Shown here: positions 5,512 through 61,399 of the stretch, piece by piece | How positions within the stretch are numbered: the stretch's first letter is position 1 | Layout of the letters: each line of letters starts with the position of its first letter | Source: Candidatus Saccharimonadota bacterium | GTDB taxonomy: Bacteria > Patescibacteriota > Saccharimonadia > Saccharimonadales > Saccharimonadaceae | NCBI GenBank assembly: GCA_009787015.1 | Contig: WRGU01000051.1 | Span: 1 to 62,813 of the forward strand | Direction: 5' to 3' | DNA: 62,813 bases | The notes under the pieces: generated by a model | Database searches by the model: none | What the model was told of the DNA's origin: nothing | Seen by the model: the letters and a program-made list of their open reading frames with translations, nothing else | Position numbers and translations under genes: made by a program

Positions 5512-6294
5512 GTGAATCCTAGTCAAGACCCAAATCGAAAACCGGTTGCGTCGCCAACGCCGCCAATACCGTCATTACCGCCGGTTAATAATTTTCCAAT
5601 GCAACCGCTGACGAAATCGGCGGTCGAAAAACCGAATCCGAAACCAAAGGCTAGCCGCTCGCCGTGGCTGCGCGACATCGTCGGTTTGGCAATTTTCGTC
5701 GTTGTTGTGGCGGTTGGTGCGTTTGTGATCAACACCTTTATCTTTCGTAGTTTCAACGTCGTCGGTCCGAGTATGGAACCAACTCTCGACGGTGGTTATG
5801 GCGATTTGCCAAATGACCGTCTGATCATCAATTTGCTACCGGAAACCTGGGCGCATCTCCAGGGTAAGGATTGGGTGCCAAATCGCGGCGATATTATCGT
5901 CTTTCGCAATCCGCGTTGGAGCGCAAACTCTGGTCAGGACGATGAGTATGTCGTCAAACGCGTGGTCGCTTTCCCGGGCGAACGCGTTGTAGTATCGGAT
6001 TGCAAGTTAAAAATCTATAACAAAGAACATCCCGAAGGATTCGATCCTTACACAAAATTCGCGAATCTGGCGGAGAATGACAAAGAAGTCAACAAATGCG
6101 TCGACGGCGAGGGCACGGACGGTACAGTGACGGACGGGAACATCTTTGTGGTTGGTGATCATCGCGACGGTAATCATTCGATGGATTCGCGCAATGGCAA
6201 CGGGCGATCGACGTTGGGGCTTGTACCGCTCAAAAACATCGTTGGTAAAGTGACTTTGCGAATTTGGCCATTGGATCGGTTAAAGGCTTTCTAA
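5512..6294 (+). CDS. lepB: Signal peptidase I with long Pro-rich N-terminal tail
   Basis: GPSMEPTL (Ser box) and VKRVVAFPGERV (Lys box). GTG start lies 6 nt after TAAAAT (5500..5505). Confidence 0.85.
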   Translation: MNPSQDPNRKPVASPTPPIPSLPPVNNFPMQPLTKSAVEKPNPKPKASRSPWLRDIVGLAIFVVVVAVGAFVINTFIFRSFNVVGPSMEPTLDGGYGDLPNDRLIINLLPETWAHLQGKDWVPNRGDIIVFRNPRWSANSGQDDEYVVKRVVAFPGERVVVSDCKLKIYNKEHPEGFDPYTKFANLAENDKEVNKCVDGEGTDGTVTDGNIFVVGDHRDGNHSMDSRNGNGRSTLGLVPLKNIVGKVTLRIWPLDRLKAF

Positions 6295-8392: not shown

Positions 8393-8887
8393 ATGGACGA
8401 AATCTACATACGCCGCAGTTACCACGACGGATTTAGTAGTCTGGCGGTTGAGGACGACAAAATCAAAGCGATTTTGAAAGCCGGTATGAACGCGCCGAGC
8501 GCACGCAATACGCAACCTTGGGAATTTGTGGTCGTGAAAGATCGCGCAATGTTGGAAAAGTTAGCAAATTCGAAAAGTTCCGGCGGGGCGGGCGCATGCA
8601 AAACTGCCGCGTTTGCGGTGATAATTTGCGCCGACGATCGTATGTTGAACAGCATCAACACCGGTTTGGCGGCGGAAAACATGATGCTCGCGGCGGAAAA
8701 CCTGGATGTCCAGAGTTTAACTATCGATATTTGGGAAACCACCGAGGCGCAGATCAATATCAAGCAGTGGTTGAATATTCCCGAAAACTTAACGGCGTAC
8801 GTGATGATCGCGTTCGGTTATGCGGACGAAAAAATCGCGCCGAACGATCGCTTTATTGAGGAAAAAATCCATTGGGAGAAATTCTAA
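8393..8887 (+). CDS. Nitroreductase-family protein
   Basis: RRSYH.., APSARNTQPWEFVVV motif; 164 aa. Confidence 0.7.
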   Translation: MDEIYIRRSYHDGFSSLAVEDDKIKAILKAGMNAPSARNTQPWEFVVVKDRAMLEKLANSKSSGGAGACKTAAFAVIICADDRMLNSINTGLAAENMMLAAENLDVQSLTIDIWETTEAQINIKQWLNIPENLTAYVMIAFGYADEKIAPNDRFIEEKIHWEKF

Positions 8888-9291
8888 TGAGTATCAAACA
8901 ATCAATCGTTCCGGATAATTATAATGCCGCACCTGGTTTCTATTCGCCAGCAATCAAAGTCGACCTCGGCAACGCCGAAATGATTTTCGTCACTGGTCAG
9001 CAGATCAACACGAACGAAAACGGCGAAGTCGCCACCACCGACATCGCGGAACAAACCGAGTATGTGTTCGAACAGTTACAGAAAACCCTACACGCCGCCG
9101 GTTCGAGTCTGGACGACGTCGTGAAAGCGCAAATTTTCTTGACCGACATTAATGATTTTCCGGTTGTATCCGAAATCCGCAAAAAATATTTTGCGAAAAG
9201 CAAACCCGCGAGCACGTTAGTCGAAGTCAATGCGATGGTGCATAAAGGTGCGAAAATCGAAATCGAAGTCATCGCAGTGAGGGAGAAATAA
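8887..9291 (+). CDS. ridA: RidA/YjgF-family enamine/imine deaminase
   Basis: APGFYSPAIKV.., IFVTGQ.., ARSTVEV-like STLVEVNAM. ATG overlaps the preceding TAA by 1 nt. Confidence 0.7.
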   Translation: MSIKQSIVPDNYNAAPGFYSPAIKVDLGNAEMIFVTGQQINTNENGEVATTDIAEQTEYVFEQLQKTLHAAGSSLDDVVKAQIFLTDINDFPVVSEIRKKYFAKSKPASTLVEVNAMVHKGAKIEIEVIAVREK

Positions 9292-9320
9292 GACCATTTA
9301 TAATAAGAAAGGAGCAAAAA

Positions 9321-9929
9321 ATGGCAGTATCACTAGAAGAAGTTAAAAAATTAAAGGAGTTGACCGGTGTGGGGTTGACCGACGCGAAAAAGGCGCTCGA
9401 AGAAGCGAACGGCGATTTCGATAAAGCGCTCGATGCGATGCGCAAGAAAGGCATGACGAAGGCCGAAAAACGTGGCGAACGCGAAGCCCGCGAGGGTGTG
9501 ATCGAATCGTACGTTCACAGCGGCCGGATTGGCGTGTTGGTCGAACTAAATTGCGAAACCGATTTCGTGGCGCGCACCGACGATTTCAAAGCGTTGGCGC
9601 ACGATTTGGCGCTGCAAGTCGCCGCGATGTCGCCAAAATGGATTGCGGACGCGGACATTCCGGAATCCGAAATCGCGCGCAAGAAAGAAGAATTATTGGC
9701 GGCGGCAAAAACCGACGCGAAAAACGCCAGTAAACCCGCCGACGTGTTGGAAAAAATCATCGATGGACAGATGAAAAAATACTTCGACGAATTAGTTTTG
9801 ATGAACCAGGTTTTTTGGAAAGACGGCGAAACTAAAGTCGGCGACCTCGTCAAAACCGTTGCCTCAAAACTCGGCGAAAACGTCGTCGTGCGCCAATTCA
9901 AGCGCATCGAACTCGGTGTGAGCGAATAG
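9321..9929 (+). CDS. tsf: Elongation factor Ts (short form)
   Basis: VKKLKELTGVGLTDAKKALEEANGDFDKA (UBA-like N-terminus), LNCETDFVAR motif. Confidence 0.9.
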   Translation: MAVSLEEVKKLKELTGVGLTDAKKALEEANGDFDKALDAMRKKGMTKAEKRGEREAREGVIESYVHSGRIGVLVELNCETDFVARTDDFKALAHDLALQVAAMSPKWIADADIPESEIARKKEELLAAAKTDAKNASKPADVLEKIIDGQMKKYFDELVLMNQVFWKDGETKVGDLVKTVASKLGENVVVRQFKRIELGVSE

Positions 9930-9930
9930 T

Positions 9931-10016
9931 TAGCGATGCGAACCGCTCTGGAACGACGAACCCTTTAAATCCCTCTACGTCTGGGGTGAGGCGGACAGAG
10001 CGGTGAGAAGGAGCGA
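9931..10016 (+). repeat. Family A imperfect-palindromic element (long subtype)
   Basis: TAGCGATGCGAACCGCTCTGG...CAGAGCGGTGAGAAGGAGCGA; begins 2 nt after the tsf stop. Other copies listed below. Confidence 0.85.
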
Positions 10017-10965: not shown

Positions 10966-11061
10966 GTCATTCTCGGGCTTGTCCCGGGAATCCATGGCAC
11001 TTGTCATCCTGAACTTGTTTCAGGATCTGTAAAATAGATTCCGCAACAAGTGCGGAATGAC
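10966..11061. repeat. Cluster of three family B GTCAT-hairpin units
   Basis: 10966..10993 (ATTCTCGGG/CCCGGGAAT), 11003..11029 (ATCCTGAA/TTCAGGAT) and inverted 11036..11061 (ATTCCGC/GCGGAAT). Stems differ in sequence but stay paired. Confidence 0.8.
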
Positions 11062-11110
11062 ATTTAAACAATTTGCACTCCTATCCCGAACGTGATAAAA
11101 TAGAAAGATA

Positions 11111-24351: not shown

Positions 24352-24434
24352 TAGTGCGCGAACCGTTCTGGAACGACGAACCCTAAACCCCTTTACGTCC
24401 GGGGTGAGGCGGACAGAACGATGAGTATGAGCGG
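24352..24434 (+). repeat. Family A element (long subtype)
   Basis: TAGTGCGCGAACCGTTCTGG...CAGAACGATGAGTATGAGCGG; starts 4 nt after the prfB stop. Confidence 0.85.
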
Positions 24435-31512: not shown

Positions 31513-31590
31513 AGCCGCTCCTACTCACCGTTTCGTCCCACCTCACTCACAGAGCAAGAGGTCGGTGGTCCGAAACGGTTCGAGTCGCTA
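31513..31590 (-). repeat. Family A element (short subtype)
   Basis: AGCCGCTCCTACTCACCGTTTCGTCC..CACAGAGCAAGAGGTCGG..CGAAACGGTTCGAGTCGCTA; close reverse-complement match to 48336..48411. Confidence 0.85.
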
Positions 31591-32922: not shown

Positions 32923-33025
32923 ATCGAACCATTACTCCCGCGCCGTTCCGCGCGCCCGTCGTCACGGGGCTTGTCACTGACTTTCTCGCCGTCCTTCGAT
33001 AATCGCGCGGAAGCAATGGTTCGAT
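32923..33025. repeat. 103-nt long-range inverted repeat, possibly a diverged family A relative
   Basis: ATCGAACCATTACTCCCGCGC (left) versus GCGCGGAAGCAATGGTTCGAT (right), about 19/22 complementary. The interior CTTTCTCGCCGTCCTTCG resembles the family A arm. Confidence 0.4.
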
Positions 33026-33929: not shown

Positions 33930-35213
33930 CTATGACGATTTCATGAGTTTTACCCATTGATCAGGGTTTTGCGGCGGTTTAATTTTAATTTCTGCGGGTT
34001 CTTTCTTCCTTAATACTAATAATTCGCGTCCCACAATCTGGTTTTCACGATGATAAATCAGGGGTTTTTTATCGCTCGAATAAAAAATTTGCTCGAAACC
34101 GATTTGCGTCAAATTATCGATTAGTTTGAGATGAAGCGTCCTCTTTCCGACGAACCAACAGGGAACAGCGAGACAAATTCCGGTTTTCGGTGTGATTTGC
34201 TGTTCCAGATTTTTCAAAAACTTCGTCAAAATCAGTTCGCAATTCGCAATATTTTCGCGCAGATTTTCCTCACTCGGTGCGGTCGCGTACGGGCGACCGA
34301 GATAAGTTTCGGTGACGACTAAATCAGCGCATTTTTGCAACTTTTTCGCGTCAGATTCGGGTTCAATCAAACTTCTTCTGAACTCGAGCCAATTTTCGTT
34401 CGTAGCGTCGGCGACATACAATGGGGCGGTGTTGCCGTCATTCAAACCGAACTTTTTGATGAGCCAGTCGAGATTTGCGTCGGTGTATTCAATCATGCGC
34501 GGCTCGATATCTGTACCAAACGGGCATGGAATACCCATTACTAACGCTTCCTGTAAAATTACGCCGGTGCCGCAGAATGGATCGAGGAGATACGTTTCTG
34601 ATTCCGAAGGTGAAAAGTCTGAAAAATTAGACCCATAAAAACCTGACAAATTTATCATAATCTGTGCCAATTTCGGTGGCAGCATGCCAACGCGCGCATC
34701 GCGTTTCGGACGACCGCGATCGCGCAGGGTATAAGCGTTCAGATCCTGCACTCCGACGAGTTCGGCGATAATTAAACGATGCCCAATATAAACCATCAAC
34801 AATTCGATTTTGTTCGGCGACGTGCCGAGTTTATTGCCGAGTGTCGCCGCATCGGAAATCTCCGCCGTCATGTTCGGCAGAATCCGCACTGACCGTCCCA
34901 AATTCTTTTTAATAAACGCGCCGGTTTTTTGAGCATTGCTTGCGCTGGCGGTTTTGCCGTAATGACTTACACCCAACGTAATTTTTCCGCCGGGTAGGTC
35001 CGAAAATCGATCAATTAAAAATTTTCCTGGATTGCCGTCATTGTCATAAATTACGCGTCCGACCTTGCGCACCCCACCGAGTCGATCAATATTCGGTTTG
35101 TCATCCGCATAAACGAGCGCCACATTCGGCAAAACCAGCACCGCATTCCCGAAAACCGCGCGCAATTCCGCGATCCCGATCTCCGGTTGTCGACCCAAAA
35201 TAAATAACCACAT
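33930..35213 (-). CDS. Putative RNA (Trm11/UPF0020-like) SAM methyltransferase
   Basis: RDRGRPKRDARVGMLPPKLAQIMINL, motif I LLDPFCGTGVILQEA. Confidence 0.5.
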   Translation of the reverse strand: MWLFILGRQPEIGIAELRAVFGNAVLVLPNVALVYADDKPNIDRLGGVRKVGRVIYDNDGNPGKFLIDRFSDLPGGKITLGVSHYGKTASASNAQKTGAFIKKNLGRSVRILPNMTAEISDAATLGNKLGTSPNKIELLMVYIGHRLIIAELVGVQDLNAYTLRDRGRPKRDARVGMLPPKLAQIMINLSGFYGSNFSDFSPSESETYLLDPFCGTGVILQEALVMGIPCPFGTDIEPRMIEYTDANLDWLIKKFGLNDGNTAPLYVADATNENWLEFRRSLIEPESDAKKLQKCADLVVTETYLGRPYATAPSEENLRENIANCELILTKFLKNLEQQITPKTGICLAVPCWFVGKRTLHLKLIDNLTQIGFEQIFYSSDKKPLIYHRENQIVGRELLVLRKKEPAEIKIKPPQNPDQWVKLMKSS

Positions 35214-47316: not shown

Positions 47317-47334
47317 TTGTGTTATTATATTCCT

Positions 47335-48846
47335 ATGACAAAAGTTAGAACACGTTTTGCGCCGAGTCCGACAGGATTCGCACATATTGGAAATTTGCGA
47401 ACAGCATTGTTTGCGTATTTGACTGCTAAACATTTCGGCGGAGATTTTATTTTACGCCTCGAGGATACGGATAAAAATCGCGAAGTCGACGGGGCGGACG
47501 AATATATTTTAAGTGCAGTTAAAACTCTAGGTTTTATTTACGACGAGGGTCCAGACATCGGCGGAAAATTTGCGCCGTACCGCCAGAGCGAACGTCTCGA
47601 CCACTATAAAAAATGGGCGTTGGTGTTGGTAGACAAGGGTCGCGCATTTGCCGATCCGTACACGCCCGAACAAATCCAAAAATTCCGCGACGAAGCGGCG
47701 GCGAACAAAAAAGCCTTTCGCTATCGCGATTTCCGCCCAACGAATCCGCCGGCCTGGGACGGAACTATGCCGCTGCGTTTCAAATCCGAACCGCGCGATT
47801 ACGCGTGGCGCGACGAAGTTATGGGCGATTTGTCGGCGGGCGCGGACGCGATTGATGATTTTGTTTTGATTAAATCGGACGGTTTTCCAACCTATAATTT
47901 TGCGCACATTATCGATGATTTAGAAATGGAAATCACACATATTATTCGCGGTCAGGAATTTATTTCGTCGACGCCGAATTATTTGAATCTGTACGAAGCG
48001 TTGGAAATCGAACACCCGATTTTTGCCACCATGCCACATATTTTGAACGAAACTGGTAATAAAAAACTCGGCAAACGCGACGGCGCGAAAGATGCCATGG
48101 AATATCTGCGCGACGGTATTTTGGTCGAGGCGCTCGATAATTTCATCGCGTCCTGTGGTTGGAACGACGGCACAGAACAGGAGATTTTTTCGATGGACGA
48201 GTTGATCGAAAAATTCACGCTTGACCGCGTTGGTCGATCAGGTGCGCGTTTCGATCCGAATCGGTTGGTTTGGATGAATGGTCAGTGGATTAAGAGACTG
48301 TCGGTTGGCGAATTGTTTGAACGAACGAATTGCGTTAGCGACGCGAACCGTTCTGGATTGCCGACCTCTTGCTCTGTGAGCGAGGCAAGACAGAACGGTG
48401 AGGAAGAGCGGTCTTTTTGGGGCGAGAATGGTGCGAACACAACTGACAACAAGAAAAAACAAGTTTTGGCAGTAGTGCAAGATCGGCTAAAAACTCTGGC
48501 GGATTTGCCGGCGTTAACCGAATACTTTTTTGCGCGACCTGAGCCGAATTGGGCGATGGTGGATGATAACAAACAATTAAAAAAACTGACGCGCGGAGAA
48601 CAGGTCGAGTTATTGTGCGCTGCGGTGGAAAAATTGGAACATACTGAATGGGATTTTGATAAATTACAGATGAGTTTGAACGAATTATTGGAAATAACTG
48701 AATCAAAACCGCCGATTTTATTCGGGATAATTCGCTTTGCGTTGACCTGGGCGCCGTTTAGCCCAGGGCTGCCGGAAACGATGGTGACGCTCGGGAAAGA
48801 TGAAACCCTGGCGCGGATTAGTACGGCGGTTGAGAGCGCAAAATGA
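47335..48846 (+). CDS. gltX: Glutamyl-tRNA synthetase carrying an in-frame repeat-element insertion
   Basis: RFAPSPTGFAHIGNLRTA (HIGH), KLGKRDG (KMSKS-type). Leaderless: TGT-TATTAT (47323..47328) + 6 nt. Confidence 0.9.
   Translation: MTKVRTRFAPSPTGFAHIGNLRTALFAYLTAKHFGGDFILRLEDTDKNREVDGADEYILSAVKTLGFIYDEGPDIGGKFAPYRQSERLDHYKKWALVLVDKGRAFADPYTPEQIQKFRDEAAANKKAFRYRDFRPTNPPAWDGTMPLRFKSEPRDYAWRDEVMGDLSAGADAIDDFVLIKSDGFPTYNFAHIIDDLEMEITHIIRGQEFISSTPNYLNLYEALEIEHPIFATMPHILNETGNKKLGKRDGAKDAMEYLRDGILVEALDNFIASCGWNDGTEQEIFSMDELIEKFTLDRVGRSGARFDPNRLVWMNGQWIKRLSVGELFERTNCVSDANRSGLPTSCSVSEARQNGEEERSFWGENGANTTDNKKKQVLAVVQDRLKTLADLPALTEYFFARPEPNWAMVDDNKQLKKLTRGEQVELLCAAVEKLEHTEWDFDKLQMSLNELLEITESKPPILFGIIRFALTWAPFSPGLPETMVTLGKDETLARISTAVESAK
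48336..48411 (+). repeat. Family A element (short subtype) inside the gltX CDS
   Basis: TAGCGACGCGAACCGTTCTGGATTGCCGACCTCTTGCTCTGTGAGCGAGGCAAGACAGAACGGTGAGGAAGAGCGG, translated ..SDANRSGLPTSCSVSEARQNGEEERS.. Confidence 0.85.
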
Positions 48847-54319: not shown

Positions 54320-54406
54320 TCGCTCCTTCTCACCGTTTCGTCCCGTCTCACTCCGGACGTAGAGGGGTTTAAAGAGGTCGGCGGAACGAAAACGGTTCGC
54401 GTCGCT
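54320..54406 (-). repeat. Family A element (long subtype)
   Basis: TCGCTCCTTCTCACCGTTTCGTCCCGTCTCACTCCGGACGTAGAGGGGTTTAAAGAGGTCGGCGGAACGAAAACGGTTCGCGTCGCT; 11 nt after the stop. Confidence 0.85.
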
Positions 54407-54450
54407 CCCGTACAGTATGTAAAACACATCAAATGTGCTAATATATTTTC

Positions 54451-61277: not shown

Positions 61278-61304
61278 GTCACTGCGAACGTAGTAAAGCA
61301 ATCT
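61278..61304. repeat. Family B unit
   Basis: GTCACTGCGAACGTAGTAAAGCAATCT, 12 nt after the greA stop. Confidence 0.65.
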
Positions 61305-61312
61305 CATACCTC

Positions 61313-61399
61313 CCGCTCCTTCTCACCGTTTCGTCCCGCCTCACTCCGGACGTAGAGGGATTAAAGAGGTCGGCGGAACGAAAACGGTTCGCGTCGCTA
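61313..61399 (-). repeat. Family A element (long subtype)
   Basis: CCGCTCCTTCTCACCGTTTCGTCCCGCCTCACTCCGGACGTAGAGGGATTAAAGAGGTCGGCGGAACGAAAACGGTTCGCGTCGCTA. Confidence 0.85.

Follow-up and report, generated by a model that had tools for sequence, protein, structure and literature searches.

Dispersed palindromic elements between and within the genes of a Saccharibacteria genome: a probable selfish DNA family that behaves like the Rickettsia palindromic elements

The window analysed here, a stretch of 62,813 nt which represents one contig (C51) of an 858-kb genome assembled in 51 contigs, contains six copies of a hairpin-forming repeat referred to as family A. Homologues of one protein encoded in the window carry the label Candidatus Saccharibacteria. 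The features of the window that concern family A are as follows.

9931 to 10016, plus strand: copy of the long subfamily L2, sense to tsf, starting 2 nt past the tsf stop codon TAG (9927 to 9929)
9935 to 9938: tag of this copy, the GATG variant of GACG
9942 to 9950 (ACCGCTCTG) and 9996 to 10004 (CAGAGCGGT): arms of its outer helix P1
10002 to 10016: its 3' terminus, GGTGAGAAGGAGCGA
24352 to 24434, plus strand: copy of subfamily L2 with a degraded 5' terminus (CTAGTGCGCGAACCG)
31515 to 31590, minus strand, as bounded by covariance model R1 (start at 31513 in an earlier reading): copy of the short subfamily S-a, antisense to a plus-strand CHAP-domain gene, the stop codon 11 nt off
47317 to 48846, plus strand: gltX (glutamyl-tRNA synthetase, 509 aa), open reading frame intact across the element
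48336 to 48411, plus strand: copy of subfamily S-a within gltX, in sense frame 0
54320 to 54407, minus strand, as bounded by R1: copy of the long subfamily L1, antisense to the upstream response-regulator gene, the stop codon 11 nt off
61313 to 61399, minus strand: copy of subfamily L1, antisense to greA, the stop codon 47 nt off

These six copies had been named in an earlier sequence-only reading, and their coordinates and orientations were reproduced. Their alignment spans the full length of the element and shows a variable centre between conserved ends; all six share the termini described at that time, and they divide as claimed into a long subtype (9931, 24352, 54320, 61313) and a short one (31513, 48336). 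A scan of the window with R1, run with filters off at E ≤ 10, returned six matches, exactly the named copies. The genes upstream of the five copies outside gltX were identified by Pfam as encoding EF-Ts, a class-I release factor, a CHAP-domain protein, a response regulator and GreA, in agreement with the proposed identities, and the gaps between their stop codons and the elements measured 2 to 47 nt, within the 2 to 50 nt given before. The copy at 24352 starts 3 to 8 nt past the release-factor (prfB) stop codon, depending on the boundary call chosen. The statement that no transposase is associated held as well, since none adjoins any copy of family A.

The earlier reading had proposed a repeat family and a genome-wide search for it. 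Iterated nhmmer searches confirmed a family far above chance, with 26 copies at unrelated loci of the genome, every one of them single and none forming a dimer. Four subfamilies can be distinguished among them, of which two are short (about 75 nt) and two long (85 to 87 nt).

S-a: ten copies, about 75 nt, mean pairwise identity 88%
S-c: four copies, about 75 nt, with a different apex, mean pairwise identity 75%
L1: six copies, 86 to 87 nt, mean pairwise identity 93%
L2: five copies, about 85 nt, mean pairwise identity 83%

Many copies are 95 to 99% identical to their subfamily consensus, and R1 recovered 25 of the 26 in this genome. The same copies were present in the same contexts in contigs of two independent metagenome assemblies, which makes an assembly artefact unlikely.

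All copies share fixed ends. The 5' end reads (T/G)AGCGACGCGAAC, contains the tetranucleotide GACG (CGTC on the opposite strand) and has the conserved sequence GCGACGCGAAC; the 3' end, a conserved 15-nt terminus, reads GGTGAG(A/T)AGGAGCGG. Between the termini lies a hairpin of three helices, P1, P2 and P3, with at least 17 base pairs. In the 14 short copies, 93.1% of the cells in the three helices were paired compared to 37 to 47% in slid controls, double changes occurred at nine of the 17 pairs, and none of 500 shuffles matched the paired percentage, the double-change counts or the covariation score. The outer helix P1 was evaluated across all 25 full copies and gave 95% paired cells (36 to 59% in slid controls) with double changes at six of its eight pairs. 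Individual copies have compensated pairs of their own, such as TT/AA in P2 of the copy at 48336. A shared-column analysis of covariation in the long subtype was dropped because the helix registers of L1 and L2 differ. The earlier suggestion that the inner arms change in a compensated manner, and that the structure rather than the sequence alone is maintained, is thus borne out by the pairing, double-change and shuffle tests.

In 24 of 25 copies, folding is more favourable for the aligned strand than for its complement (mean −29.4 versus −22.3 kcal/mol). Within the three helices, G·U and A·C combinations occurred in a ratio of 15:8 (p = 0.21), and the asymmetry in folding is only suggestive of a selected feature of RNA or single-stranded DNA. 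The GACG tag lies 7 nt 5' of P1 and is present in 23 of 25 copies. Weak T preference was observed in the 5' flank.

Several hallmarks of other structured repeats were absent. Terminal inverted repeats are lacking, as the termini AGCGACGCGAA and GGTGAGAAGGAGCGG are not complementary, and the lengths of direct repeats in the flanks were distributed as expected at random, which indicates the absence of a target-site duplication. Host flanks contribute to no stem in family A. An autonomous parent element of greater length, bearing these termini, was not found; matches to orphan termini were two-mismatch chance hits only. Searches against Rfam returned only tRNAs at the gathering threshold and nothing meaningful on the element itself at E ≤ 1, including no match to a ribozyme or intron.

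Seventeen copies are intergenic, and 11 of these lie within 20 nt of a stop codon. Among the 12 copies between co-directional genes, eight lie in that quarter of the free spacer which is nearest to the stop codon (binomial p = 0.003; as the copies share descent, this and the other p-values overstate their independence). Genes outside the window were called with a simple open reading frame finder. The proximity to stop codons noted in the window holds for most intergenic copies, and on contigs C28 and C25 the stop codon of the upstream open reading frame is the element's own 5' TAG. In a compact genome, the natural reading is that the stretch between a stop codon and the next promoter is the only neutral intergenic space. 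With respect to the upstream gene, the copies in tandem gene pairs are antisense in eight cases and sense in four. None of the family-A copies has a U-tract directly past the stem, where the conserved GTGAGAAGGAGCGG follows instead; in some flanks, for example at 9931, a T-run begins about 12 nt beyond the stem. A terminator scan made no call on the element, the copies at 9931 and 24352 included. An intrinsic terminator was rejected on these grounds and on the occurrence of both orientations.

Roughly a quarter to a third of the copies (6 to 9 of 26) are located within genes. Five are solid cases in sense orientation, in gltX, leuS, recG, pyrG and a tlyA-like rRNA methyltransferase gene, and Pfam identified the hosts as genuine housekeeping genes. 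A TylF-like methyltransferase gene contains a diverged, partial copy in antisense orientation, and three further cases, two in short open reading frames and one in the 5' region of a secreted-protein gene, are ambiguous. In the last of these, a gene for a predicted secreted protein of 696 aa (C36:9471-11561), the copy is antisense in the 5' part; if an upstream ATG were used, it would encode a charged n-region (..PKRFASL) ahead of the hydrophobic core of the signal peptide.

The copy in gltX encodes SDANRSGLPTSCSVSEARQNGEEER, residues 341 to 365 of the glutamyl-tRNA synthetase, between the catalytic and the anticodon-binding domains. Residues 338 to 365 are missing in all 30 relatives compared, the one congeneric genome (G001) among them; the matches break at query residues 337 and 365, and the flanking pieces are contiguous in the relatives' DNA, which marks the segment as an insertion found in this genome alone. 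By comparison with E. coli LeuRS, the copy in leuS falls into a variable loop where the anticodon-binding domain begins, and that in recG lies just ahead of helicase motif I by comparison with T. maritima RecG. LeuRS (C45:3934-6927) also contains a NUDIX domain (Pfam, E = 9e-10) inserted just ahead of the editing (CP1) domain. The TlyA-like protein has 266 aa, compared to 241 to 243 aa in typical Saccharibacteria homologues. AlphaFold2 predicted its structure with a mean pLDDT of 85.8, and the insert was the sole long stretch of low confidence, modelled as a coil that connects two strands. Unrelated inserts occupy the same loop in about one third of the TlyA-like homologues aligned. According to these predictions, the insert positions would fit the folds of the TlyA-like protein, GluRS and LeuRS.

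All solid sense copies within genes, five in this genome and three in the congener, use a single codon phase, GAC GCG AAC CGT, which reads D-A-N-R (8 of 8). The resulting peptide of about 25 residues is rich in Gly, Pro and Ser, hydrophilic and of net charge 0. Frame 0 is the only frame both free of stop codons and neutral in charge: the remaining two sense frames run into TAG or TGA at the 5' edge of the element or within it, and antisense peptides have charges of +2 to +7. With a GRAVY value of −1.34, frame 0 is also more hydrophilic than all but one other frame of the short type. The common variant GAGTAGG, present for instance in the copy at 31513, places a TAG in frame 0 and is confined to non-coding copies plus the one in recG, where a 1-nt deletion moves the TAG out of frame. 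Coding copies carry GAGAAGG or GAGGAAG in its place, and only 75-nt copies, a multiple of three, occur within genes.

The orientation of intragenic copies (eight sense, one antisense) differs from that of intergenic ones (Fisher p = 0.024), although antisense frames are open more often: among 25 copies, the three antisense frames were open in 19, 14 and 20, and the three sense frames in 14, 7 and 5. Judged from the sequences, a plausible explanation for the sense bias is the tolerance of a neutral, hydrophilic peptide, and selection of this kind would account for the exclusive use of frame 0. The elements would then be translated as part of their host proteins.

Outside this genome, in which it made 25 matches, R1 recognised family A only in the congener, with three solid copies. 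Nothing was found in the other 59 genera sampled as relatives, and family A was absent from 401 genomes of 95 genera of the family. A pattern consisting of the termini only matched 11 times in this genome and produced single matches at chance level in 400 genomes (256 genera) of the order, and a scan for the exact termini in GTDB species genomes yielded 0 matches in other species. The same scan of metagenomes detected six contigs, which have identical model scores and thus belong to the same organism. By these sequence comparisons, family A is specific to one Saccharibacteria genus among the genomes searched.

The three copies of the congener are mutually divergent and all intragenic, in pyrG (at a second site), cysS and tsaD; two have the GACG tag and one has GATG. 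The orthologues of these sites in the genome under study are uninterrupted. Conversely, the congener is without family A in gltX and after the stop codons of tsf and prfB. None of the seven sites compared was common to both congeners, in a comparison that drew on a 70% complete genome and, for BLAST, on a 20-kb piece of the window. Since no site is shared, the copies represent recent insertions. Host genes of the two congeners are 67 to 78% identical and copies reach 97 to 99% identity to the subfamily consensus; together with the unshared sites, the 95 to 99% range of many copies against that of the host genes indicates that family A expanded after the two species had split.

Family A is one of at least four palindromic families in the genome, the others being referred to as B, C and D. 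The inverted repeat at 32923 to 33025 had been suspected to be a diverged relative of family A; this was not the case, as it produced no R1 match even at E ≤ 10 and belongs to the separate family C. A 117-nt segment of recG (C36:6743-6859), directly adjoining the family-A copy in that gene, matches it with 92% identity. Family C elements are about 95 to 117 nt long, fold at about −56 kcal/mol and occupy 15 loci, ten of them in open reading frames of at least 294 aa. Family D, a nearly perfect hairpin of 168 nt (−72 kcal/mol), was found at C36:7331-7498 (recG), C36:11756-11908 and C47:11480-11626 and as a partial copy at 34563 to 34625 of the window; three of its four loci are inside open reading frames. 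The family-D copy is the third insert in recG and, by its sequence, would be read in frame between helicase motifs II and III.

Several family-A copies are immediately followed at their 3' end by units of family B (GTCAT hairpins), with which they form composites. Family-B units were located as follows.

10999 to 11063 of the window: family-B unit
about 61278 to 61312 of the window: family-B unit
contig C9, about 850 to 886: family-B unit
contig C36, flanks of the family-A copies at 5766 and 9569: family-B units

The 3' end of the family-A copy at 61313 abuts a hairpin unit of another family (ATTGC...GCAAT-GAC), and the same composite occurs on contig C9. The family-B unit at 10999 to 11063 has at least eight matches in the congener, which holds a pair of family-B units after tsf, at the position of the family-A copy in the present genome. 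Other in-frame inserts, with a peptide of the type CHS..SES...QDDKI, were seen in the congener (tsaD on contig C86 and pyrG site 1 on contig C24) and in a TlyA-like homologue (P0003). As they affect different proteins and genera, they may constitute a further element family across Saccharibacteria.

Family A was compared with known systems. Like the classical MITEs Correia, ERIC and RUP, its members are small, non-autonomous and structured, often located beside genes and occasionally in frame within them. The terminal inverted repeats and target-site duplications that characterise MITEs were tested for; family A has neither, and the MITE model was rejected. With IS200/IS605 and REP/RAYT systems, family A shares the lack of these two features, asymmetric ends, a hairpin and one strand that folds better than the other. 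The genome also encodes a single RAYT-like Y1/HUH transposase of 205 aa (contig C46, about 8830 to 9447, minus strand; L036 1309-1926) with the HUH and catalytic-tyrosine motifs NHFHLLI and RYIHLNP. This gene is bracketed by a perfect 27-nt palindrome, TCCTGCATCAAAGAC-N-GTCTTTGATGCAGGA, which is rare elsewhere in the genome, in a layout resembling a REPtron. The flanking palindrome shares nothing with family A, and the gene was rejected as an element-flanked cognate. A Y1 gene was not detected in the 70% complete genome of the congener despite its family-A copies; a reverse transcriptase was found in the congener only. Transposition via HUH enzymes and single-stranded DNA typically results in a copy orientation that follows GC skew. 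Here, orientation agreed with the sign of the skew in 12 of 25 copies, that is without bias, though with a power limited by short contigs, and with the gene strand in 13 of 25. Family A thus differs from IS200/IS605 and REP/RAYT systems in the unrelated palindrome around the RAYT gene, the lack of a conserved 4- to 5-nt target and the missing link to GC skew.

Intragenic units and the lack of a dedicated transposase are also known from the CGTC-tagged REP superfamily (Di Nocera et al. 2013, PMC3733652). Common traits are the unpaired CGTC/GACG tag at one end only, a preference for co-directional or convergent spacers near or overlapping stop codons, some intragenic units, and G·T pairs in the stems (PMC3733652). 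These REPs measure 20 to 40 bp, with a stem of 8 to 9 bp, a loop of 4 to 5 nt and a 3-nt CCA tail, and are mostly arranged as head-to-head dimers (PMC3733652). Family A is instead a single composite hairpin of three helices, 75 to 87 nt long, with a long conserved 3' terminus and without dimers; membership in the group of short CGTC REPs was rejected on size, architecture and the missing dimers.

The closest resemblance in behaviour is to the Rickettsia palindromic elements RPE-1 to RPE-10 (Ogata et al. 2000, 2002, summarised in PMC10969869). As far as that summary goes, these are likewise dispersed hairpin repeats of a small, reduced genome in which several families coexist, with intergenic copies as well as in-frame copies in unrelated housekeeping genes, read in one frame to a conserved peptide and inserted at positions compatible with the fold, and no transposase is known for them (PMC10969869). 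A CGTC at one end, the tag reported by Di Nocera et al., is shared as well (PMC3733652). Unlike RPEs, family A resides in Saccharibacteria of the CPR and not in Alphaproteobacteria, is shorter (75 to 87 nt compared to roughly 100 to 150 bp) and has a smaller intragenic share. The dispersed hairpin, the consistent in-frame insertion, the absence of the insert from orthologues and the predicted compatibility with the host fold would place family A, by analogy of behaviour, in an RPE-like functional class, which implies no claim to the RPE sequence families. In full-text literature searches, no paper was found that describes such elements for Saccharibacteria or the CPR. To our knowledge, in-frame "protein-coding palindromes" have so far been regarded as a peculiarity almost unique to Rickettsia.

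The predicted read-through of the copy at 48336 and others, in frame within essential genes, shifts the interpretation from an RNA element of 3' untranslated regions to an RPE-like selfish element. We consider family A to be a non-autonomous, selfish palindromic mobile DNA element of the REP/RPE type, confined to one Saccharibacteria genus, with a probability of about 0.8. Its stems covary but its termini are constant across subfamilies because, as we infer, some copying machinery would recognise the hairpin together with the two termini. The element would insert without duplication of its target, and selection would then filter the insertions so that two kinds of site persist. One would be the short dead zone from a stop codon to the next promoter, where either orientation is tolerated and the element's 5' TAG sometimes serves as the stop codon. 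The other would comprise permissive surface loops and domain linkers, where only 75-nt copies in the stop-free sense frame survive and a peptide of about 25 residues may be read through as an additional floppy loop.

The function implied by the earlier reading is that of a host-serving RNA hairpin in 3' untranslated regions, a terminator, a barrier to 3' exonucleases or a processing site kept for the tuning of upstream genes. The position of most intergenic copies within 20 nt of a stop codon and the strong (mean −29 kcal/mol), structurally conserved hairpin would suit such a role, REPs elsewhere do stabilise upstream mRNA (PMC3733652), and single copies may have been exapted. Nevertheless, eight of the 12 copies in tandem pairs would be transcribed as the antisense RNA, which folds far less well, and neither a U-tract directly past the stem nor a terminator call was obtained. 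The tsf and prfB sites of the congener are without family A, none of the other genera searched has it, and 6 to 9 of 26 copies lie within open reading frames. A terminating, stabilising or processing role is thus not favoured, and we regard this explanation as improbable. Spread through errors of hairpin-templated replication or repair, by fold-back copying or gene conversion between hairpins and without a transposase, is somewhat less remote, albeit still unlikely. It agrees with the lack of target-site duplications, terminal inverted repeats and an associated transposase, and with the composites formed beside other hairpin families. The termini of family A, however, are sharp, fixed and asymmetric, and none of its stems derives from flanking DNA; both properties are more typical of ends recognised by an enzyme and count against products of slippage.

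Two further explanations concern the intragenic copies only. Domestication, with the frame-0 peptide (SDANRF...NGEKER) or the mRNA hairpin acting as a shared tag or translational pause, would be in line with the strict 8:1 preference for the sense frame in spite of the more frequently open antisense frames, and with peptide ends conserved across divergent copies of two species. These peptide ends, however, correspond to the termini of the DNA element and are kept in non-coding copies too, and only 75-nt copies can preserve the reading frame in any case. The congeners share no insertion site, the insert is predicted to be a disordered loop, and unrelated inserts in the same loops of other Saccharibacteria point to permissive sites, all of which renders domestication very improbable. 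Hardly credible is the idea that the host proteins lack the insert because the copies within genes act as intervening sequences, which would be lost from the mRNA or skipped by the ribosome. The stable hairpin with defined and conserved boundaries would be appropriate for such a process, yet removal would not need an open frame, and all eight solid copies are free of stop codons, a multiple of three in length and in one frame; the TAG variant is either excluded from coding copies or out of frame, and no match to a ribozyme or intron was present in Rfam.

Beyond the reading of family A as a selfish element, a more far-reaching proposal is rather doubtful at present. Family A and the at least three other families could be mobile DNA shaped by selection to be coding-competent, with a length divisible by three, a single neutral, disordered and stop-free frame, and a TAG or TGA at the 5' edge acting as a "fuse" in the other sense frames. 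They would still be active in the genus and move via a strand-specific hairpin intermediate, perhaps mobilised in trans by the RAYT-like HUH enzyme. If so, a coding-competent element could colonise the essential genes of a minimal genome without killing its host, the genus would be the first in which the mobilisation of RPE and CGTC-type elements is amenable to study, and new protein loops would arise from such elements in CPR bacteria generally.

With family A, the full RPE-type syndrome is encountered in an unrelated, equally reduced and host-dependent lineage, in which the hosts include aminoacyl-tRNA synthetases, CTP synthase, RecG and an rRNA methyltransferase. The occurrence in both lineages suggests that tolerance of such elements is generally linked to the tiny genomes of symbionts. 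Annotation and phylogenomics of CPR bacteria are affected, since spurious insertions will show in alignments, and as a young and sharply bounded family, family A could serve to find the mechanism of mobilisation.
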